Source: Candidatus Odinarchaeota archaeon (GTDB lineage Archaea > Asgardarchaeota > Odinarchaeia > Odinarchaeales > Odinarchaeaceae). Taken from it: 25,885 nucleotides of DNA. The DNA is taken from NCBI GenBank assembly GCA_038826135.1, contig JAWBON010000014.1, forward strand, positions 1-25,885. The letters are read 5' to 3'. A program made the position numbers and the translations under genes. The notes under the pieces are model-generated. The model had not been told where the DNA came from, made no database searches, and worked only from the letters and a program-made list of their open reading frames with translations. Each line of letters opens with the position of its first letter. Within the stretch, counting starts at the first letter, position 1. Below, in pieces: positions 1,434 through 12,937 of this stretch.

Positions 1434-4400
1434 ATGGTTTACATAAAGAAGCTGGAAATGAAAGGGTTTAAATCATTCGGCGGCGAGAAAGTATCTTTAA
1501 ATTTTGAAAAAGGCTTCACCGCGATTGTAGGACCTAACGGAAGCGGCAAGTGTGTTACAGGGGAGACTCGAATATATTTAGCGAGCGGAGAGATTGTTAA
1601 AATATCAAAACTTGTAAACAGTAAACTTAATGCGGGTTACAAAATTAAATTAAAAGACGGATACATGAGTTATGGTGACGGGCAAGAAATTTTATGCTTG
1701 GATTTAAACGATTTAAGAATCATAAAAAAACCAGTCGCCGCTTATATTAAACGAAGATCCCCGGCAAAGCTTATAAAAATTAAAACACGGTCAGGGAAAA
1801 GTATAACCGCTACACCGTACCATCCTTTCTTTACATATAAAAACGGTTATATTGAAACTATAAGCGCTGAGGATTTGAAAACGGGCGCCTTCATAATAGT
1901 TACGGATGTTATTTCACTCTATGATTGCCCTTTACGGGTGGCGGGAAAATCAGCTGATTCAAGGGGTTTTTTTAATAAATTAAACCAGTTAACGCTCACA
2001 GTAAACGACAGTGAAAAACTAATAAATTCAGACATATATCTAGATGAAGTCACCTATCTTGAAGTTTCACCTTCGAGGGAGCGCTGGGTATACGACCTGT
2101 GTATAGCGGAACACCATAATTTTATCGCGAATAATATTATAATTCACAATAGCAATATTCTTGACGCTTTATGCTTTGTATTAGGTCATTTAAGCGCTAA
2201 AACATTGAGGGCGGGTGCATTCTCGGATTTAATCTACATTGATAAAAAAAATCAGAGCGCGGCTAAAGCAGCCACAGTAACCCTTCACCTAGACAACTCA
2301 GACCAAGGTATACAGGTTGAATCGAAAAACGTAGTTATAACTAGAAGCATCGATGTTGACGGTAATGGAACCTACCAGTTAAACGGTCAACGCGTGACAA
2401 GAGGGCAGATTATAGACATACTTAATTTAGCTGGCATAACACCGGATGGGTATAATATAGTTTTCCAAGGGCAATTAGCGCAAATGGTTTCAATGACACC
2501 TCTTGAAAGACGTTTACTAATAGAGAAAATAGCGGGTATAGCAGCATACGATGAAAAAAAGGAGAAGGCTAAAGAAGAGCTTGAAAAAGCTGAGAATAAT
2601 CTTAACCAAATTAATATTCTTTTAGATGAAATTAAAAACACGAAAGATAAATTATTAAAAGATAAGCAGGATGCTGAAAAATGGCTGAGCATAAACAGTG
2701 AAATAGAGAAACTAGAAGCCAGTATAATTTTCTACGAGATAAGAGAGTTAAACAAGAAAATAGAGGATTCTAAAAAAAGACTGGAAGAAAAAAAGATACA
2801 ATTAGAAGAAGTTGAGAAAAAACAGAAAGATTACAGCGATGAGAGAAGCCGTGCTCAGAAAAGAATTAACGAGATTGAAGAAGAGATAAGAAGCATACAA
2901 GAGAATCAGCTGAATATAATACATCAGTCTATTACTGAAAATAAATCCGAGCAGGCTAGAATAACCCAGGAATTAATCTATAACGATGAGGCTTTCAACT
3001 CAGCTAAAAAAGAATATGAAAGAATGAAACAAGAATTATCAAACTATGAGATAACCCGTGAAGAATCATATAACAAATTACAGGAAAACCGTGAACTTAA
3101 AAAAACATTAGATAATGAAATTTTCAATTTAAACAATGAAATAAACCAGATCACCAATTATATAGCTAATATTGATGCCAGCTTCGAAGATTATACTAAC
3201 AAGTTTAGGGATATAAGAAGTAAACTAAGCTTGAAAGAGGATGAATTGAAAAAACTACTTTTAGAAAACGAGAAAATAGACGGTGAAATCAACGCCCTCA
3301 ATGATAAATTAAAATATTATAATGAAATGTTGTTGAAAAATAGGGAAGGCCCGGATAGCCTCGCAAGTAGGAAAAAAGAGTTTGATGAAAAACTAGCTGC
3401 ACTTCAAAAAGAGAACAGCGTTTTAAACTTAGAGAAAGAGAAAATGGAGAATAAAATAACCCAGTTAAATGAGGAGAGTAAAAATCTCAGCTCAGAGATT
3501 CAAGCCAGAAAAGAAATGCTTATAGAGATTCGAACACGAGTGAACGCTGTTAGAGAGACAGCTAGTAGAGAACCGCTGAGAAACAGGGCTGTTGAAGCAA
3601 TACTGGAATTGAAGAAAAACATGGTAAACGGGATATTCGGAACAATAGCGGAGCTGGGCGCGGTTAGCTCTGAATATGTTAAAGCTATAGAAGTAGCAGC
3701 CGGAGGAAGATTAGACTACATAATTGTGAAAGATGATGAAACAGCAGCGAAATGTATTTCATATTTAAAAAATAAACGCATAGGGCGGGCTTCATTCCTA
3801 CCTTTAAATAAAATAAAACCCAACACTGTGAGAATTAATAATGAAAAAATAAAAGCCATACACGCTTTAGACGTGGTAAAATTCAAGGATGAGTTTAAAA
3901 CAGCTTTCGAATACGTGTTCGGGAGATCATACATTTTTAATAATTTACAAGAGGCTAGGGCTGTTGAAGAGGATAAAATCCAGAAAGTCACATTAGACGG
4001 TGACCTGATCACTCCATCAGGGCTAATGGTAGGCGGATACTACCAAACACCTGTCAAATTCACTTTAGAAGAGGAGCGGAGAATACCCGTTATAGAGAAG
4101 GAGATCCACGAGTTAAACACTAAACTTAACGATTTAAAGGAGCAGAGAGATAGAGAAATCGAAAAAAGTAATCGAATTAACATTAAACTCAGAGAATTAG
4201 ATAAAGAATATAATCTATTACTAGGCCAGAGCACAAGTCTCAACATAAGACTCAGCGAGTTAGATGCTTCAATTCAAGAGTTTCAAAAACAGATAGAAGA
4301 AGTTGAAAAACAACTCGCTGATAAAAATAGTGTTAAACAAGATTATGGGAGAAGACTTGAATTATTAAACAGGGAGATTAATAATCTTAAAAACGAGTAC

Positions 4401-5594
4401 GAGGAGATCAGCCAAATACTTGAGAGAAGCGAGGTTTCAAAAGTTAACAGAAGGCTTAAATCATTAGATGAGGAGAGAAATAGAAAAATTTCAACTCTAC
4501 GAGAAATAGATAATCAAATCACAAAGTTAGAAACAGAGGTACACGCTCAAATAGAACCTAAAATAAACGAATTAAAACAATCAATCTTAAACTTAGAGGA
4601 TAAAATACCGGGACTTGAAAAAACCATCCGAGAGAGAAAAGAGACTTTATCTGAACTAGAAAAGAGATTAAAAACATTAGACGAGGAAAAAACTAATGTT
4701 AGTAAAGAAGTTGAATTATTACAAGAAGAGAAAAAAGAACTGATTAAAAAACTAACGCTAATAGATGAAAAATTAGTAAATCTAGATAAGGAGAGAAACT
4801 CTTTAAACCTTGGAATTGCGAGAATGACCGCGAACCAAGAGACATACACATCACAGATGAATGATTTAAAAACCCGGGCTAAAAACTATCCCACTGATGA
4901 AATAAGGCTAGCAGATAACTTGGATGTTGAAAACATAAAGGTTAAAATCTCAGAACTGAAACAGGAGAAAAACCTCTTAGAACCTGTAAACCAGAAGGCG
5001 ATACAGGAATACGAGGGCGTGGAGAAAAGATTCGAAGAGCTTAACAGTAGAAGAATGAAGTTAATCGTTGAGAGAGATACTATACTTAAATTCATGGATG
5101 AGTTGGAAAGCGAGAAGACGAAAGTCTTCATGAACACCTACAGGGCGGTTGATGAAAACTTTAACAGAATATTCTCCCAACTTTCACCAAACGGTGAAGC
5201 GCATCTAGAATTAGAAGACAAACTACACCCGCTGCTCGGAGGGGTTAGAATAAAAGCTAAACCAGCTGGAAGAGAGATAGGCTATCTGGAGTCTATGTCA
5301 GGCGGGGAGAAATCGCTAACCGCATTAGCATTAATTTTCGCAATACAGCAATATCAACCAGCTCCATTCTACATATTCGACGAGATAGATTCCGCTTTAG
5401 ATAATGCTAATGTTGTAAAAGTGGCTGACCTAATAAAAGAGTTCTCAAAATACTCACAATTTATTGTAATAACATTAAGGGATATTATGATGGCTAGAGC
5501 TGAGAACCTGTTCGGCGTCACTAAAAGTAACAATATTTCTAAAATAGTGTCAGTGAAATTAGAGGAGGGAGTAAAATATGCAGAACGACAATGA
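1434..5594 (+). CDS. smc: Chromosome segregation ATPase SMC (intein-containing precursor, 1386 aa)
   Basis: Walker A GPNGSGK|S split by an insertion, Q-loop IVFQG, long coiled coils, hinge (GIFGTIAELG, AAGGRLDYIIV, GRASFLPL, TLDGDLITPSGLMVGG), signature MSGGE, Walker B FYIFDEIDSALD. Followed by scpA and scpB. Confidence 0.97.
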   Translation: MVYIKKLEMKGFKSFGGEKVSLNFEKGFTAIVGPNGSGKCVTGETRIYLASGEIVKISKLVNSKLNAGYKIKLKDGYMSYGDGQEILCLDLNDLRIIKKPVAAYIKRRSPAKLIKIKTRSGKSITATPYHPFFTYKNGYIETISAEDLKTGAFIIVTDVISLYDCPLRVAGKSADSRGFFNKLNQLTLTVNDSEKLINSDIYLDEVTYLEVSPSRERWVYDLCIAEHHNFIANNIIIHNSNILDALCFVLGHLSAKTLRAGAFSDLIYIDKKNQSAAKAATVTLHLDNSDQGIQVESKNVVITRSIDVDGNGTYQLNGQRVTRGQIIDILNLAGITPDGYNIVFQGQLAQMVSMTPLERRLLIEKIAGIAAYDEKKEKAKEELEKAENNLNQINILLDEIKNTKDKLLKDKQDAEKWLSINSEIEKLEASIIFYEIRELNKKIEDSKKRLEEKKIQLEEVEKKQKDYSDERSRAQKRINEIEEEIRSIQENQLNIIHQSITENKSEQARITQELIYNDEAFNSAKKEYERMKQELSNYEITREESYNKLQENRELKKTLDNEIFNLNNEINQITNYIANIDASFEDYTNKFRDIRSKLSLKEDELKKLLLENEKIDGEINALNDKLKYYNEMLLKNREGPDSLASRKKEFDEKLAALQKENSVLNLEKEKMENKITQLNEESKNLSSEIQARKEMLIEIRTRVNAVRETASREPLRNRAVEAILELKKNMVNGIFGTIAELGAVSSEYVKAIEVAAGGRLDYIIVKDDETAAKCISYLKNKRIGRASFLPLNKIKPNTVRINNEKIKAIHALDVVKFKDEFKTAFEYVFGRSYIFNNLQEARAVEEDKIQKVTLDGDLITPSGLMVGGYYQTPVKFTLEEERRIPVIEKEIHELNTKLNDLKEQRDREIEKSNRINIKLRELDKEYNLLLGQSTSLNIRLSELDASIQEFQKQIEEVEKQLADKNSVKQDYGRRLELLNREINNLKNEYEEISQILERSEVSKVNRRLKSLDEERNRKISTLREIDNQITKLETEVHAQIEPKINELKQSILNLEDKIPGLEKTIRERKETLSELEKRLKTLDEEKTNVSKEVELLQEEKKELIKKLTLIDEKLVNLDKERNSLNLGIARMTANQETYTSQMNDLKTRAKNYPTDEIRLADNLDVENIKVKISELKQEKNLLEPVNQKAIQEYEGVEKRFEELNSRRMKLIVERDTILKFMDELESEKTKVFMNTYRAVDENFNRIFSQLSPNGEAHLELEDKLHPLLGGVRIKAKPAGREIGYLESMSGGEKSLTALALIFAIQQYQPAPFYIFDEIDSALDNANVVKVADLIKEFSKYSQFIVITLRDIMMARAENLFGVTKSNNISKIVSVKLEEGVKYAERQ
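1551..2150 (+). mobile_element. Mini-intein (200 aa) in the SMC Walker A motif
   Basis: The in-frame insert starts with Cys (CVTGETRI, block A), has block B ITATPYHPFF and block F VYDLCI, ends NFIANNIIIHN (block G) and is followed by Ser +1. Removing it restores GPNGSGKSNILDAL. No LAGLIDADG motif visible. Confidence 0.95.
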
Positions 5595-6303
5595 CAGTGA
5601 ACCCTTCTGGCTTCAACCCCCCTGGATAATATTAACAGACACTTTAAAACTTAAAAAAATAAATCTTTGGAATATTGAAATAGATTACTTAGTTAAAGGC
5701 TTCTTAGAAAAAATGTTACTTCAAGATATGGTGAACTTCAGAGTATCAGGTTTAGCGCTTTTCTCAGCTTCATTACTATACCGGTGGAAGACTGAAACCC
5801 TATTAAAAAAAGATGAAGAGCAAGATTTAGAGCAAACCCCGATAGACGAGGAGTTTAAACTGTTACCACCGATAATCCCACCATTCCGACAGACTGCTAG
5901 AGGAATATCAATAGGAGAACTTTTAGTAGCTTTAGAGAAAGTATTGAAAGAGGAGGCTTCAGGTAAGCGGAGAACTTTGTTGAAAAAAAACATTTTAGAA
6001 AATATTCAACCACTTATATACGCTATAGACCCTGATAAAACACAGATTGAGAAGACTCTAAAAAATATTTATGAATTAATTAAGAAAAAAGCCGCTACTG
6101 ACAGGGTTGTTAAATTTTCAGATATATTACCTAGTAGGGAGAAAATGGAGATCGTGAAAACGTTTTTCTGTATTCTGATACTCGGATTTAGAGGTTACAT
6201 TGACGTCTGGCAGGAGGAGGAGTTCAGTGAAATATTCATAGAACTATTAAGAAATGAGGATGAGATAATACTCGGTGAGAGAAATGCCAGAACTGAAACT
6301 TAA
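5578..6303 (+). CDS. scpA: Segregation and condensation protein A (kleisin)
   Basis: N-terminal kleisin pattern (INLWNIEIDYLVKGFL..NFRVSGLALFSASLLYRWKTETLL) and C-terminal winged helix (IVKTFFCILILG..IDVWQEEEFSEI). Overlaps the smc stop by 17 nt. Confidence 0.88.
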   Translation: MQNDNDSEPFWLQPPWIILTDTLKLKKINLWNIEIDYLVKGFLEKMLLQDMVNFRVSGLALFSASLLYRWKTETLLKKDEEQDLEQTPIDEEFKLLPPIIPPFRQTARGISIGELLVALEKVLKEEASGKRRTLLKKNILENIQPLIYAIDPDKTQIEKTLKNIYELIKKKAATDRVVKFSDILPSREKMEIVKTFFCILILGFRGYIDVWQEEEFSEIFIELLRNEDEIILGERNARTET

Positions 6304-6844
6304 ATCAAAGGTTGAAGCAGCGTTATTTGTAGCGGGAAGACCTTTGAGTCTAACTGATATTTGCAGAGCGGTTAATTTTGAAGACGAGAAAGAGATAGCG
6401 AGAATAATCGAAGAGCTTAGATTAGAGTACCAGAATAGGGAGAGTGCGCTTGAGATCACTTTAACTTCAAATAATAAATACGTTCTTCAACTTAGAGCCG
6501 TATTCCCAGATATTGTCTCTAAGCTAGCACCACCAGGGCTTTTAACACTCGGCGCTTTAAAAACACTCTCTCTTATAGCTTTAAAACAGCCTGTAAGACA
6601 GAATGAAGTGATTAAAATAAGGGGAAGCCACGCCTACAAGTATATACATCAACTTGAAGAGAAGGGATTTGTAGAAGGCACGCCTGACGGCCGTTCAAAA
6701 ATTCTTAGAACCAGCACTACATTTGCAGATTACTTCGGGCTTGATTATGATTTAAAAAAATTAAAAATGCAGCTTAGATGGAAAATGAAGAAAGAGGGGA
6801 TATCACCGGAGTTAGTTAATACTTCTGAAGTGGATGAAGGTTAA
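6284..6844 (+). CDS. scpB: Segregation and condensation protein B (kite subunit)
   Basis: VEAALFVAGRPLS, LKTLSLIALKQPV, IRGSHAYKYIHQLEEKGFV, TSTTFADYFGL. ATG 6284 follows GGTGA; the track starts at GTG 6275. Overlaps scpA. Confidence 0.93.
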   Translation: MPELKLKSKVEAALFVAGRPLSLTDICRAVNFEDEKEIARIIEELRLEYQNRESALEITLTSNNKYVLQLRAVFPDIVSKLAPPGLLTLGALKTLSLIALKQPVRQNEVIKIRGSHAYKYIHQLEEKGFVEGTPDGRSKILRTSTTFADYFGLDYDLKKLKMQLRWKMKKEGISPELVNTSEVDEG

Positions 6845-8056: not shown

Positions 8057-8638
8057 GTGACTTTTTTGGATATACTTGACGTTATGGAATTAATTATAAT
8101 AAAAGAATCAGGGCGAATAGGCAGATACACATTAAAAGACGCTCTTGGAATTTCAGAGGGGAAAACCCGCAGCATGCTCAAAAAACTTTTAAATGAAGGT
8201 TTAATAAGCGCGGGACCGTTAGGCGCATCTTTAACCAGTAAAGGAGAAAAAGAGTTGAATCAAAAACTCAGAGAATTAAATATTAAAAAATATCTTTTTT
8301 CACCGCAAACGATACTTGATACAAGTTTAAACCATTATATTTTCCAAATGGTGAACTTTCAAATTGAAAACACGAAATTAATCCAGCTGAGAGATGAGGC
8401 GATAAGAGGGGGGGCTTCAAGCGCAATATTCATATTATATAATCAGGGTAAACTAACGGTCCCGGGCGTCTACAATAATTTAGCTGAAGTTGATGAAAAA
8501 ACATGTTTACTGTTAAAAAATAATTTTGAACTATCTGAGGGCGATCTTTTAATAGCAGCGTCGTCAAAAAACCGCTGGCTAGCTTTAAAAGGATGCCTCC
8601 ACACAATTCAGGCTTTAACCAAAAATACATTAAGATGA
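8057..8638 (+). CDS. Winged-HTH protein with DUF4443-like C-terminal domain, putative regulator
   Basis: N-terminal GRIGRYTLKDALGISEGKTRSMLKKL (wHTH-like). The C-terminal QLRDEAIRGGASSAIFILY..GKLTVPG and L.EGDLLIAASS recall archaeal DUF4443 proteins. Confidence 0.6.
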   Translation: MTFLDILDVMELIIIKESGRIGRYTLKDALGISEGKTRSMLKKLLNEGLISAGPLGASLTSKGEKELNQKLRELNIKKYLFSPQTILDTSLNHYIFQMVNFQIENTKLIQLRDEAIRGGASSAIFILYNQGKLTVPGVYNNLAEVDEKTCLLLKNNFELSEGDLLIAASSKNRWLALKGCLHTIQALTKNTLR

Positions 8639-9239: not shown

Positions 9240-9536
<297 letters not shown>

Positions 9537-9598: not shown

Positions 9599-10072
9599 TT
9601 GATCAACATTAAAACCTTCGATGAGATACTAAGTAAGATTATTAAAAGCGAATCTGGCATAAAAAAAGTCATTCTAGTTGATAGAACAGGCCTTACAATA
9701 GCTCATGTATCTAAGTTTTCATATTATCCAGTCGACATAGATGGGATAGGAGCTATCGCAAGCGCTGTGTTCAGTGCAAGCGAGGAGCAGGGGAAAAATC
9801 TAGAGATCGGAGACTTAGATCTGTTAAGCTCAGAGTTTAGCGACGGGAAAATATTCGCGGCAAGCTGCGGTAAAGGAGTTTTAAGCGTGATCACAGATAA
9901 GGATGTAAATATAGGTATGGTCCGCCTTTTAATTAAAAAAACAAGCGAACAGTTAAAGGAAGTATTAGATGAGTTCCTAGCTGAAAAACCAGCGAGTAAA
10001 TTAAGCCTAGATAAGAAGGAAACATCCACCGAGGATTTGAAAGCTGCTCTAGGGGAACTTGAAAAAAGCTAG
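9599..10072 (+). CDS. Roadblock protein 3, LAMTOR2/MglB-like with C-terminal extension
   Basis: VILVDRTGLTIA, IGAIASAVFSASEEQGKNL, GKIFAA, VNIGMVRLLIKKTSEQL, plus a tail of about 30 aa ending in a likely helix. Confidence 0.85.
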   Translation: MINIKTFDEILSKIIKSESGIKKVILVDRTGLTIAHVSKFSYYPVDIDGIGAIASAVFSASEEQGKNLEIGDLDLLSSEFSDGKIFAASCGKGVLSVITDKDVNIGMVRLLIKKTSEQLKEVLDEFLAEKPASKLSLDKKETSTEDLKAALGELEKS

Positions 10073-10100: not shown

Positions 10101-10469
10101 ATGACACAGAAAGCTGAAACACTAGATAGCGTTCTTAGAGATTTAGAAGCGGCTGTTCCACAGATACAGGCTGCTGCAATAGTTAGCGTGGAAGGTTTAC
10201 CTATAGCATCTATACTGCCGTCAAAAGTGGATGAAACAATGATAGCTGCGATGACGGCTGCAATGCTATCGCTGGGGGAGAGAGCTGCAGCTGAACTGGA
10301 TAAAGGCGAGCTTGAACAAGTATATGTGAAAGGCAAGGACGGTTACATAATCGTTATGGGCGCCGGTGCGAACGCTGTATTAACATTAAGCGCAACGAAG
10401 GATGTTAAACTAGGCTTGATATTTCTAGAAATGGAGCGCGCTGCTAAAAAAATCGCTAAACTAGTTTAG
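10101..10469 (+). CDS. Roadblock protein 4, classical prokaryotic MglB-like type
   Basis: AAAIVSVEGLPIAS, IAAMTAAMLSLGERAAAELDKGELEQVYVKGKDGYII, KLGLIFLEM. Confidence 0.92.
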   Translation: MTQKAETLDSVLRDLEAAVPQIQAAAIVSVEGLPIASILPSKVDETMIAAMTAAMLSLGERAAAELDKGELEQVYVKGKDGYIIVMGAGANAVLTLSATKDVKLGLIFLEMERAAKKIAKLV

Positions 10470-10580: not shown

Positions 10581-11114
10581 ATGGAGCAGATCATTTCATA
10601 TAAGGGTATCACTCCTAAAATAGGTAAGGATACTATTATCAGTAGCACTGCGAGAATAATCGGGGATGTGAATATAGGAGATAAGTGCTATATAGGAGCT
10701 AATGTAACTGTGAGAGGGGATTTAGCCCACATAGTTATCGGCAACTATAATATAATAGAAGATGACACACTTATTTACCCCGGTGAAGAGTACTCTGATG
10801 GTGTTCTATCACACTCAGAGATATTAATCGGCAACTATGGTGTTATTGAAAAAAAATGTGTCATCCAAGCCAGCTACTTAGGAGACTATTTTAAAATATG
10901 TAACGGCTCTATAGTTGAAAAAGGCGTCCAGTTAAATGAAGGTGTTTTTATATTATCAGGATCTGTAGTAGCTAGTGGCTCCATCATACCACCTATGAGT
11001 GTTCTAATAGGTAACCCGGCGCATATACTTAGAAAACTCAGCTTCGGTGAAAAAGAGAGGCATGAATCATATATTGAATCCTACTATGAGCTTATGAAGA
11101 GAATCACCCAGTAA
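10581..11114 (+). CDS. Left-handed beta-helix protein, gamma-carbonic-anhydrase-like fold without Zn ligands; dynactin p25 (DCTN5)-like
   Basis: Hexapeptide repeats, VRGDLAH, IPPMSVLIGNPA and a C-terminal helix. The expected gamma-CA His positions read LIY, IEK and IQA. ATG 10581 follows GTGA; the track starts at GTG 10554. Confidence 0.8.
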   Translation: MEQIISYKGITPKIGKDTIISSTARIIGDVNIGDKCYIGANVTVRGDLAHIVIGNYNIIEDDTLIYPGEEYSDGVLSHSEILIGNYGVIEKKCVIQASYLGDYFKICNGSIVEKGVQLNEGVFILSGSVVASGSIIPPMSVLIGNPAHILRKLSFGEKERHESYIESYYELMKRITQ

Positions 11115-11117
11115 CAG

Positions 11118-12248
11118 GTGCGGGAGTTGACTATAAAATATCAGTGTTCAATATGTAAAAATTATACAACAGCGTACGAAGCTTATTTTTGCCCACTCTG
11201 CCAGGAAATAATATGCTATAACTGCACTAATCCTGAACCTGTATTGTATAAGTGCTTCAGATGCGGTAGAGTTTATAGTATTAAAGAAGCTAGAGAAAAT
11301 TTTACAGAGTGTAAAGATTGTTATAAGTGTCATTACTGTGGTGGTGATTTAAAAATTAAATATGCTAATAACAGGTATTTTTTCGAGTGCTTTCATTGCC
11401 TGTGGAGTTCTGAAAACCAGGAGCCTATAATCACTAGCCCGGATAAGTTAAATGTGATAAGAGAGGCGGGAAATATTTTACAAAACGATAGATTATATGA
11501 GGATTACGCCGTGTACTGCCCGAAATGTAAAAGCACATTGATTAACACAAAAAATAGGGTGGTGAATAGTTTAGCAAGTGTTTTCCCGAAAATCATGTTT
11601 AACACGAAATCAATACCTGTTAATACAAGGATAGATATATTCTACTGGGTTAAAAACACGAGGCCTGAAGGCTCATTTTTCCGTTTAGACTGGGAGGCTG
11701 GAAATAACTTTCAGATTATGCAGCTTAGTAGGGCTGCAGAGTTTGACTTCCACTCACCGTTTATTAAAACTCAGAAAACAAGTAAACTATCGATAAAAGC
11801 GGATAATACAGGGGAGCTGAATATATACGCGGATCTAAGCTATAAGTTTGATGAAATAAAGTATGGAGCGGGTAAAACAAAGATTAAATTGGGACCCATA
11901 ATCGCGTATCCTAGAATAGAGATCACCAGGATTTTAGAGTCACCACCCACATCCACAAAAGAGAACACTGTGAAAATATGTGTTAAAAACGAGGCTGAAC
12001 AGGAACTCCAGCGATTAATAGTTTCAGATATGATATTAGAGGGGGCCTTAGATTTTAAAAGAAGATACTGGGATATAAAAAATTTAGAGAAAGGAGGGGA
12101 GCTGCAATTAGCTTACAGTTTTAAAGCTGATCCTGCTGCAACCAGAATAAGATTCGATGTTTTACGCGGCAAGATCAGATTTTCAAGCTTCATGCCGCAA
12201 ATATTCTTCGATTATGTAGGAGCGTCTGAAATAGTTGAAATAGGTTGA
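11118..12248 (+). CDS. Multi-zinc-finger protein with beta-sandwich C-terminus; dynactin p62 (DCTN4)-like
   Basis: Eight CxxC pairs (Cys 10/13, 25/28, 33/36, 46/49, 65/68, 71/74, 91/94, 134/137), with YFCPLCQE, EAR....CKDCYKCHYC and YFFECFHCLWSS, then a beta-rich region. Starts 3 nt after the previous stop. Confidence 0.75.
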   Translation: MRELTIKYQCSICKNYTTAYEAYFCPLCQEIICYNCTNPEPVLYKCFRCGRVYSIKEARENFTECKDCYKCHYCGGDLKIKYANNRYFFECFHCLWSSENQEPIITSPDKLNVIREAGNILQNDRLYEDYAVYCPKCKSTLINTKNRVVNSLASVFPKIMFNTKSIPVNTRIDIFYWVKNTRPEGSFFRLDWEAGNNFQIMQLSRAAEFDFHSPFIKTQKTSKLSIKADNTGELNIYADLSYKFDEIKYGAGKTKIKLGPIIAYPRIEITRILESPPTSTKENTVKICVKNEAEQELQRLIVSDMILEGALDFKRRYWDIKNLEKGGELQLAYSFKADPAATRIRFDVLRGKIRFSSFMPQIFFDYVGASEIVEIG

Positions 12249-12937
12249 AAACAGAGGCGAATGATTTGATTAAGGCGGTTATATTCGACTTAGATGGGAC
12301 ACTCGTACATTTTAAAATAGATTATAAAAATGCCAGGGAACAGGTTAAAAATTACTTAACAAGGCTAGGTGTTCCCGAAGAGTATATGTTAAATCAACCT
12401 ATATTCACAGCCTTAGAGCAGGCAATCCGCTACTTAAAATCTAGAAAAACCAGTGAAAGTGAAGTTAACAGGATAAAAGAAGATATCAATAAAATTGTCT
12501 CCCAGTTCGAGTTGAAAGCGGCTAATGAAACATTTTTAACACCTAACGCTAAGGAAACCCTCAGCGAGGTAAAAAGATTAGGGGTTAAAATAGGTTTATT
12601 CACAATTAATAACAGGCAGGTTACAGAGATTGTGCTAAATAAAACTGGTATAAAAAAATTTTTTAACATTATTGTAAGCAGGGATGATACGAGCGCGATT
12701 AAACCTGATGATGAACACTTATTAACAGTTACTAGGAAGCTTGGTGTGGAGCCAGAGCAGAGTGTTGTTGTAGGTGACACGGTTTATGATTTTCAAGCGG
12801 CTAAGAGATTAGGGGCTTTAACTATAGGCGTTGAAGGATTATATGACGCTACATACCTAAAGAATGAGGGTAAAGTAGACTATGTTGTAAAAGATCTGTC
12901 AGAGATAATTAATATTATAAACAGATTTATTATTTAA
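12245..12937 (+). CDS. HAD-superfamily hydrolase (phosphoglycolate phosphatase-like)
   Basis: Motif I IFDLDGTL, motif II FTINN, motif III KP, motif IV VVGDTVYD. 4-nt TTGA overlap with the upstream gene. Confidence 0.92.
   Translation: MKTEANDLIKAVIFDLDGTLVHFKIDYKNAREQVKNYLTRLGVPEEYMLNQPIFTALEQAIRYLKSRKTSESEVNRIKEDINKIVSQFELKAANETFLTPNAKETLSEVKRLGVKIGLFTINNRQVTEIVLNKTGIKKFFNIIVSRDDTSAIKPDDEHLLTVTRKLGVEPEQSVVVGDTVYDFQAAKRLGALTIGVEGLYDATYLKNEGKVDYVVKDLSEIINIINRFII

Follow-up and report, generated by a model that had tools for sequence, protein, structure and literature searches.

Does a gene that databases label a gamma carbonic anhydrase (gamma-CA) in an Asgard archaeon still encode an enzyme, or does it encode a non-catalytic relative of the dynactin subunit p25 (DCTN5)? 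This question is raised by a locus of Candidatus Odinarchaeota archaeon (assembly GCA_038826135.1, contig JAWBON010000014.1, positions 1 to 25,885 of the forward strand), and we refer to this whole stretch of 25,885 nt as the window. One of its genes encodes a left-handed beta-helix (LbH) protein of 177 aa, here P0001, which a preliminary description of the DNA had taken for a scaffold intermediate between gamma-CA and p25/p27. To our knowledge, dynactin counts as a machine that only eukaryotes possess. We consider it likely that P0001 is a catalytically dead, p25-like descendant of a long-loop gamma-CA, which would act as a non-catalytic scaffold partnering the p62 (DCTN4)-like protein encoded directly downstream.

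The gamma-CA metal site is lost in P0001 and throughout its family

When P0001 was aligned with the solved gamma-CA 9QEV using HMMER, Y66, K91, and Q96 stood opposite the three metal histidines. In a MAFFT alignment, the three metal columns read H/H/H in 123 of 189 relatives, and the eight Odin orthologs carry YKQ, HKQ, IKQ, or IYR. The first of these columns is histidine in 96/96 canonical gamma-CAs, while in the 14-member His-less family to which P0001 belongs it holds tyrosine ten times and histidine and isoleucine twice each. Within that family, K91 (13/14), Q96 (13/14), and P67 (14/14) are near-invariant. Since the replacements are conserved across the family, we found the loss of the metal site to be real and family-wide, which agrees with the earlier claim that all three zinc histidines are gone. 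The strings quoted in support of that claim and of a likeness to p25 are all present as well (NIIEDDTLIY at 57-66, IEK at 89-91, IQA at 95-97, RGDLA at 45-49, PP at 137-138, and SYY at 167-169). The catalytic glutamine of the NIQD motif, found in 85/96 canonical gamma-CAs, is E60 in P0001 and is divided between glutamate (8) and glutamine (6) in the family (n = 14), and the conserved gamma-CA RGD is retained. DCTN5 representatives carry R/K, E/K/R, and R/Q/E at the three metal columns.

The orthologs of P0001 are named "gamma carbonic anhydrase family protein" by NCBI and, in one case, "phenylacetic acid degradation protein" by JGI; a label of this kind, gamma-CA or acetyltransferase, had been correctly predicted from the sequence. 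As a statement of function, the gamma-CA annotation is almost certainly wrong. On the NCBIfam gamma-CA equivalog NF050158, P0001 scored 81.8 bits, below the cut-off of 250, and it reached the cut-offs of neither PaaY (TIGR02287; 61.8 versus 319.6) nor CaiE (NF010150; 48.8 versus 305). A Pfam scan returned Hexapep repeats and also PF21711, the DCTN5 family, with a score of 53.9 bits, above its cut-off of 40. The latter match covers model positions 33-181 only and leaves the DCTN5-specific N-terminal segment (1-32) unmatched, and residues 1-30 of P0001 align with the gamma-CA N-terminus in an alignment to PDB gamma-CAs. The gamma-CA-like N-terminus that had been read from the sequence is thus recovered in the extent of the Pfam match.

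We built an AlphaFold2 model of P0001 from eight Odin orthologs (mean predicted local distance difference test score [pLDDT], 79.9). The model consists of a left-handed beta-helix followed by a C-terminal helix at residues 155-176, with a low-confidence segment at 138-155. Foldseek searches with this model returned gamma-CA-fold chains only, and the top matches were all gamma-CAs, so the fold search is unable to separate p25 from gamma-CA.

The His-less family is narrowly distributed and exists alongside a canonical gamma-CA

The closest relatives of P0001 are proteins from metagenome-assembled genomes of Odinarchaeia (63-89% identity), among them OdinLCB4_005360 of Candidatus Odinarchaeum yellowstonii (86%), and the start methionine of P0001 is common to its orthologs. 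Among the 400 Asgard genomes of this phylum that we scanned, clear orthologs were found in the window's genus (86-89% identity), in another family of its order, which we call Odin family 2 (47-49%, ~181 bits), in two genomes that match a Wukongarchaeota-named cluster (38%, 142 bits), and in one further lineage, G309 (GCA_016292335.1; 42%, 115 bits). All other matches in the 400 genomes were at or below 90 bits, which is the range of ordinary gamma-CAs. A pattern search with the alignment of the His-less family recovered mostly ordinary gamma-CAs, its pattern being generic.

The window's own assembly (completeness, 93%) carries another LbH gene at positions 21304-21732 of contig C13, in which the NIQD...H, GH, and H motifs are intact and which scores 28.8 bits on the DCTN5 model. 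Since a canonical, His-bearing gamma-CA is encoded elsewhere in the genome, the gene for P0001 is a specialised paralog and not a decayed sole copy.

Two further observations concern relatives of P0001. At the G309 locus (L128, 9489-10076, minus strand), the His-less LbH gene has no p62-like neighbour; an uncharacterised open reading frame (ORF) of 178 aa lies directly upstream of it, and a gene for an Arf/Ras-family small GTPase and two for KaiC-like ATPases (PF06745) lie 3-5 kb off. In addition, P0051 (514 aa) and P0053 (301 aa, Chloroflexota) are tandem fusions of two to three complete gamma-CA domains with visible histidine motifs, and could be single-chain versions of the trimer.

P0001 shares derived characters with eukaryotic p25

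We compared the motifs of P0001 with eukaryotic DCTN5 sequences retrieved by search (n = 15). The likeness to p25 noted in the preliminary description was found in these sequences, namely in RGDLA, in PP..V..G.P, and in the C-terminal YY, and also in a 17-residue loop. At the last two positions of RGDLA, DCTN5 has leucine in 12/15 and alanine in 10/15 sequences, while canonical gamma-CAs have V, Y, I, or F followed by G, N, or H. A proline directly after the first-histidine position occurs in 15/15 DCTN5 sequences and in 14/14 members of the His-less family, and is not among the common residues of canonical gamma-CAs there. The loop that this proline opens is 17 residues long in the Odin/Wukong family and the majority of eukaryotic DCTN5 sequences, compared to 9-10 residues in ordinary gamma-CAs; loops of 17-18 residues are also found in TACK gamma-CAs that keep their histidines. 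RGDLA, Pro67, the 17-residue loop, and Y169 are derived characters that P0001 shares with DCTN5.

The same loop is altered in the best PDB match of P0001, 9QEZ, which is an engineered "carbonic anhydrase mutant" of a Caloramator gamma-CA (compare 9QEV). It carries a 7-residue acidic insertion exactly where the His-less family, DCTN5, and the haloarchaeal gamma-CA 6SC4 have their long loop. Our literature search found no paper for 9QEZ.

Trees and DCTN5 profiles favour a position of the His-less family next to p25

Our main maximum-likelihood (ML) tree held 87 sequences, including 15 eukaryotic DCTN5 representatives and omitting DCTN6, and was calculated under LG+C20+F+G4 from an alignment of ~180 columns. 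The tree is unrooted within the part that contains DCTN5 and the Asgard family. DCTN5 and the Odin proteins formed a group with support of 100/99, which was 95/65 with the Wukong proteins added and 100/87 with G309 added. After deletion of the loop and metal-site columns, DCTN5 and Odin still grouped together (95/87), and with both data sets the sister of DCTN5 consisted of His-less family members only in 1000/1000 bootstrap trees. The placement of DCTN5 was also unchanged by 34 extra archaeal gamma-CA-like sequences, among them Asgard paralogs that barely pass the PF21711 cut-off. Rather than setting P0001 inside ordinary gamma-CA clades away from DCTN5, the ML trees nest DCTN5 in or beside the Asgard family.

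The next relatives in the tree form a short-loop, partly His-less clade of Helarchaeota, Freyarchaeum, and Ranarchaeia (100/96), beyond which stand the His-bearing long-loop gamma-CAs of Korarchaeota, Nezhaarchaeales, and Bathyarchaeia. Members of the short-loop clade (P0064, P0062, P0176, P0061, P0074, and P0110, together with one Bacillota cluster) have lost one to three metal histidines, and this clade is a second, separate erosion of the metal site among Asgard archaea.

Profile comparisons that start from DCTN5 gave the same ranking. With hhalign, DCTN5 scored 258/247 against the His-less family and 185-213 against the canonical, mitochondrial-type, TACK, and other Asgard groups, while the best partner of the His-less family itself was canonical gamma-CA (317). 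The intermediate state that had been suggested for P0001 is therefore measurable, as the best profile partner of DCTN5 is the family and that of the family is canonical gamma-CA. A hidden Markov model (HMM) of the 15 eukaryotic DCTN5 sequences ranked 15/15 family members first among 288 LbH sequences (107-139 bits; next, 104). Across the 400 Asgard genomes, the best matches to PF21711 were the loci of the His-less family (control genomes, 0/14). On this model, orthologs scored 46-58 bits, with a maximum of 65.7 bits in Odin family 2, compared to 116-219 bits for true DCTN5.

Together, the trees and DCTN5-side profiles favour the His-less Asgard family as the closest prokaryotic relative of DCTN5, a placement that is not statistically secured. 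An order that leads from long-loop archaeal gamma-CA to the His-less Asgard family and on to DCTN5 is the best-supported one, although it is not proven.

A p62-like gene lies directly downstream of the LbH gene

The gene that follows P0001 encodes a 376-aa protein, P0041, and begins either 3 nt (GTG at 11118) or 12 nt (TTG at 11127) past the LbH stop codon. P0041 has eight invariant CxxC pairs, then a helix and a disordered stretch, and then two beta-sandwich domains. In Odin family 1, in Odin family 2 (39% identity to P0041), and in Wukong (29%), a homolog of it directly follows the LbH gene, and these were the only groups with full-length p62-like members among the Asgard genomes scanned. 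The orthologs of P0001 and P0041 in Candidatus Odinarchaeum yellowstonii are OdinLCB4_005360 and OdinLCB4_005355. One p62-like locus is cut by a contig end, which explains why no LbH gene is seen there.

A profile of nine p62-like sequences had dynactin subunit 4 (DCTN4) as its top PDB match (E = 3e-07). The alignment spans 80 positions and keeps every aligned CxxC pair, along with several further residues, in register; E was 0.017 for the second-best PDB match. This significance came with the addition of the Odin family 2 and Wukong sequences, as the Odin-only profile of seven sequences reached DCTN4 at just E = 0.25-0.3. Pfam gave no significant match to the p62-like protein, with Dynactin_p62 at E = 0.79 in two of the seven members. 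In a language-model search of the Atlas, three "Dynactin p62" clusters were the nearest named clusters (score, 0.76), which we take as a lead only.

A fold search with the p62-like model (mean pLDDT, 63) returned generic Ig-like beta-sandwiches, including transglutaminase C-terminal domains, macroglobulin, and CARDB-like folds, and DCTN4 was not among the matches listed. Since the N-terminal zinc region is poorly modelled, this search says little. A complex prediction for the p62-like and LbH families, run without controls, scored 0.01 and has no bearing on binding in either direction.

The main anchor of p25 within dynactin is p62 (2746 A^2), with the p25 beta-helix on a zinc "saddle" of p62 and the p25 C-terminal helix on a p62 beta-sandwich (PMC8047447). 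A conserved and tightly coupled LbH/p62-like pair is what we would expect of an archaeal p25-p62 counterpart. The DCTN4-like neighbour is also evidence independent of the LbH sequence, and convergence of the LbH protein alone would not predict it.

Other Asgard proteins resemble P0041 in part. Proteins of ~790-820 aa in ~25 other Asgard genomes, and one at L047 1445-3391 (G141), have a p62-like N-terminal zinc-ribbon region. They match positions ~10-145 of the p62-like profile at 25-38 bits, including the C..C.W.S knuckle, and by eye continue into winged-helix repeats and a beta-sandwich, which amounts to another architecture with the same zinc module. The product of L045 748-1902 (minus strand; G308), which is 384 aa long in an open frame of 458 aa, matches profile positions 5-180 at 47.7 bits. 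Its C-terminal half is rich in beta-strands and by eye like the p62-like beta-sandwiches, and its gene has no adjoining LbH gene; it may be a distant member of the p62-like family in another Asgard lineage.

A proposed scaffold compared with other explanations

We propose that an archaeal long-loop gamma-CA would have lost its three zinc histidines, which became Tyr, Lys, and Gln, and that P0001 would now serve as a rigid scaffold and not as an enzyme, with no CA activity expected. Probably made together with the zinc-ribbon/beta-sandwich protein that resembles p62, it may form a stable heteromer with it.

Several results weigh against this reading. As a single sequence, P0001 scored 72-87 bits with PDB gamma-CAs, 51 bits with DCTN5, and 34 bits with DCTN6, and the family profile ranked these groups in the same way (95-127, 82, and 51 bits). 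The statement that P0001 is closer to p25 than to gamma-CA therefore fails by raw similarity and is favoured by descent, as judged from the ML trees and the DCTN5-side profiles. The PF21711 match lacks the N-terminal segment of DCTN5, and the PF21711 cut-off is also passed by His-bearing gamma-CAs, namely P0054 (47.4 bits) and several Asgard paralogs (40-50 bits). A profile of His-bearing long-loop archaeal gamma-CAs scored mammalian DCTN5 at 86 bits, compared to 82 for the family profile. Within the 400 Asgard genomes searched, the family itself was found in no lineage beyond Odin, Wukong, and G309.

The tree has weaknesses of its own. In approximately unbiased (AU) tests, a tree with the Asgard groups together and DCTN5 apart from them gave p = 0.21, and one with DCTN5 beside the loop-15 gamma-CAs gave p = 0.07 at a cost of 37.8 log-likelihood units; placing DCTN5 with the TACK long-loop gamma-CAs gave p = 0.038. 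The groups for these tests were chosen with the tree already in view. With only ~180 columns the tests lack power, and as they do not firmly reject other placements of DCTN5, they are not decisive. The DCTN5 stem is long (1.26 changes per column), so long-branch effects are possible, and the outgroup sample was picked by similarity to the query.

DCTN6 (p27) shows a different pattern of scores. It reached 70 bits with the profile of His-bearing long-loop gamma-CAs versus 51 bits with that of the His-less family, a further point on the opposing side, and the canonical short-loop gamma-CA profile had neither dynactin subunit among its best 60 matches. A special link between the His-less family and DCTN6 is not supported by these HMM scores. 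With DCTN6 scoring higher outside the family than against it and a second, canonical gamma-CA in the genome, we could not uphold the earlier suggestion of a single copy that reflects a state before the p25/p27 duplication.

We regard it as unlikely that P0001 is an independently degenerated gamma-CA pseudoenzyme of a few Asgard lineages, with a likeness to p25 in fold, histidine loss, and loop length that is convergent, a tree grouping with the long DCTN5 branch that is an artefact, and a role unrelated to dynactin-like assemblies. Such an origin would fit the repeated erosion of the metal site, seen in the Helarchaeota/Freyarchaeum/Ranarchaeia sister clade and in several bacterial sequences that lack one to three histidines, as well as the long loops of His-bearing TACK and haloarchaeal-type gamma-CAs, the weak AU tests, and the highest raw similarity being to gamma-CA. 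On the other hand, the grouping with DCTN5 persists without the loop and metal-site columns, derived characters outside the metal site are common to both, all DCTN5-side profile tests rank the His-less family first, and a conserved DCTN4-like neighbour would not follow from LbH convergence alone.

Less probable still is an enzyme with other chemistry, either an acyl-CoA thioesterase or transferase like PaaY/CaiE or a hydratase with other ligands, in which Lys91, Gln96, and Tyr66 would make up a new active site between subunits. The near-invariance of K91, Q96, and P67 does show selection on the former active-site region, and the weak PaaY and CaiE scores and the JGI name of one ortholog point in the same direction. 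However, those scores are far under their cut-offs and no paa or cai genes were found within the window; DCTN5, which is not an enzyme, carries comparable residues there (K/E/R at 91 and Q/R/E at 96), and the conserved partner gene encodes a zinc-ribbon/beta-sandwich protein and not a metabolic enzyme. Finally, an early eukaryote might have passed p25 and p62 genes horizontally to the ancestors of Odin and Wukong, in which case the pair would not be ancestral to dynactin. This is suggested by the branching of DCTN5 inside the Asgard family and the patchy spread among Asgard lineages, but is very improbable, since the archaeal proteins are far more gamma-CA-like than any DCTN5 (in their N-terminus and short branches), some keep the first histidine and 6/14 the catalytic glutamine, and their next tree relatives are other Asgard and TACK gamma-CA-like proteins, as fits descent from gamma-CA through the Asgard family to DCTN5, a direction argued from characters and not proven by a tree that is unrooted here.

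Given a p25-like scaffold paired with a p62-like protein, the next question is what the pair would act on. The genome encodes one actin (353.7 bits in our actin search), which makes the end of an actin filament the obvious, if speculative, candidate target. It is conceivable, but in our judgment rather doubtful, that a p62-p25 "pointed-end" module was already present in Asgard archaea, where it would cap or decorate one end of the archaeal actin filament and recruit other factors. Such a module would predate dynein, Arp1, and eukaryotes, and would later have been co-opted as the cargo-adaptor platform of dynactin. Dynein heavy chain, Arp1/Arp11, p150, and p50 are not known from these archaea, and none was searched for here.

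Genomic surroundings of the pair

The features of the locus are collected in Table 1. A HAD gene after the LbH/p62-like pair is conserved only within Odinarchaeia, where it is also present at the Odin family 2 locus L040; at the Wukong locus, a GNAT gene takes its place. Upstream of the LbH gene stand an orotidine monophosphate decarboxylase gene in Odin family 2 and MtrH, on the other strand, in Wukong. We considered the Roadblock cluster as part of the unit and rejected it, as it lies upstream of the LbH gene in the window's genus only. The AT-rich stretch tttaaataatataaa before the LbH start is TATA-like and may act as a TATA-type archaeal promoter, in which case the LbH/p62-like/HAD unit would have a promoter of its own.

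Table 1. Coordinates of the LbH gene, its altered metal-site codons, and neighbouring features in the window
Feature	Position	Strand	Basis
Three co-oriented Roadblock/LC7 genes	9252-9536, 9599-10072, 10101-10469	+	Pfam Robl_LC7; upstream of LbH gene
AT-rich stretch tttaaataatataaa	10538..10556	+	~25-40 nt before LbH ATG; read from sequence
LbH gene, P0001, gamma-CA-derived, p25 (DCTN5)-like	10581..11114	+	ATG-to-TAA ORF, 177 aa, stop codon included
Y66 codon, first Zn-histidine position	10776..10778	+	Alignment to 9QEV and column counts
17-residue loop P67-L83, first-histidine position to next beta-helix turn, invariant Pro first	10779..10829	+	
K91 codon, second Zn-histidine position	10851..10853	+	Alignment to 9QEV and column counts
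Q96 codon, third Zn-histidine position	10866..10868	+	Alignment to 9QEV and column counts
p62 (DCTN4)-like gene, P0041, 376 aa	11118..12248	+	Profile match to DCTN4; conserved position after LbH gene
HAD-family hydrolase gene	12245..12937	+	Pfam HAD_2, 2e-30; 4-nt overlap with p62-like gene

Farther upstream, the window holds an SMC gene (1434-5594, plus strand; 1386 aa) with an intein splicing domain in the N-terminal ATPase head (Pfam Intein_splicing, 86 bits, residues 53-239), followed by genes for ScpA and ScpB at 5578-6844. Just before the Roadblock cluster, a gene at 8057-8638 (plus strand) encodes a protein of 193 aa that starts with a CggR_N/MarR-like winged helix and has DUF4443 as its C-terminal domain.

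Comparison with known systems

A full-text literature search for dynactin in combination with Asgard, Odinarchaeota, archaea, or carbonic anhydrase turned up no report of p25 or p62 in archaea. In a survey of dynactin evolution, "archaea" and "prokaryot" have zero occurrences and "bacteria" has one (PMC3583065). If the pair is the archaeal p62-p25 core of a pointed-end complex, it would add a cytoskeleton-associated module to the eukaryote-like inventory of Asgard archaea, and it would provide a concrete route by which a long-loop archaeal gamma-CA, an enzyme, became a structural subunit. Two small proteins of a thermophile would then be at hand for direct tests of how the pointed-end complex arose and what it first did.

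Among characterized families, CamH-type gamma-CAs (9QEV, 1V3W, and 6SC4; NF050158) are like P0001 in fold, length, N-terminal sequence, and RGD, and have the highest raw similarity to it. They differ in that the metal histidines and the catalytic glutamine are present and the loop is 9-10 residues long in most. The His-triad long-loop gamma-CAs of Korarchaeota, Nezhaarchaeales, and Bathyarchaeia (P0067, P0164, and P0091; also P0087) are nearer in their loop, which has 17-18 residues and a similar sequence (xP.d.YSeGe.sY.P..IGD). They are the next-best matches of the DCTN5 HMM and the next outgroup in trees, but they lack RGDLA and, as far as they were examined for it, a p62-like neighbour, and as they keep H/H/H they are presumably active enzymes.

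DCTN6 has the same fold as P0001 and likewise no zinc site, but it is much more distant. DCTN5 (PF21711; PDB 6ZNL chain W) resembles P0001 in its beta-helix with a C-terminal helix, its missing zinc histidines, and its RGDLA, proline after the first-histidine position, 17-residue loop, PP..V..G.P, and YY. Unlike P0001, DCTN5 has its own N-terminal segment of ~30 residues where the archaeal protein has one of gamma-CA type, and the cargo-adaptor sites of p25 are meaningless in the archaeal setting of P0001. A precedent for such a change of role is found in mitochondrial complex I of plants and protists, where gamma-CA-like (CAL) proteins with degenerate metal ligands serve as structural subunits. 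CAL (PDB 7AQQ chain x, among the PDB matches of P0001) differs from P0001 in belonging to the loop-15 group of the tree and in forming a heterotrimer on a membrane complex.

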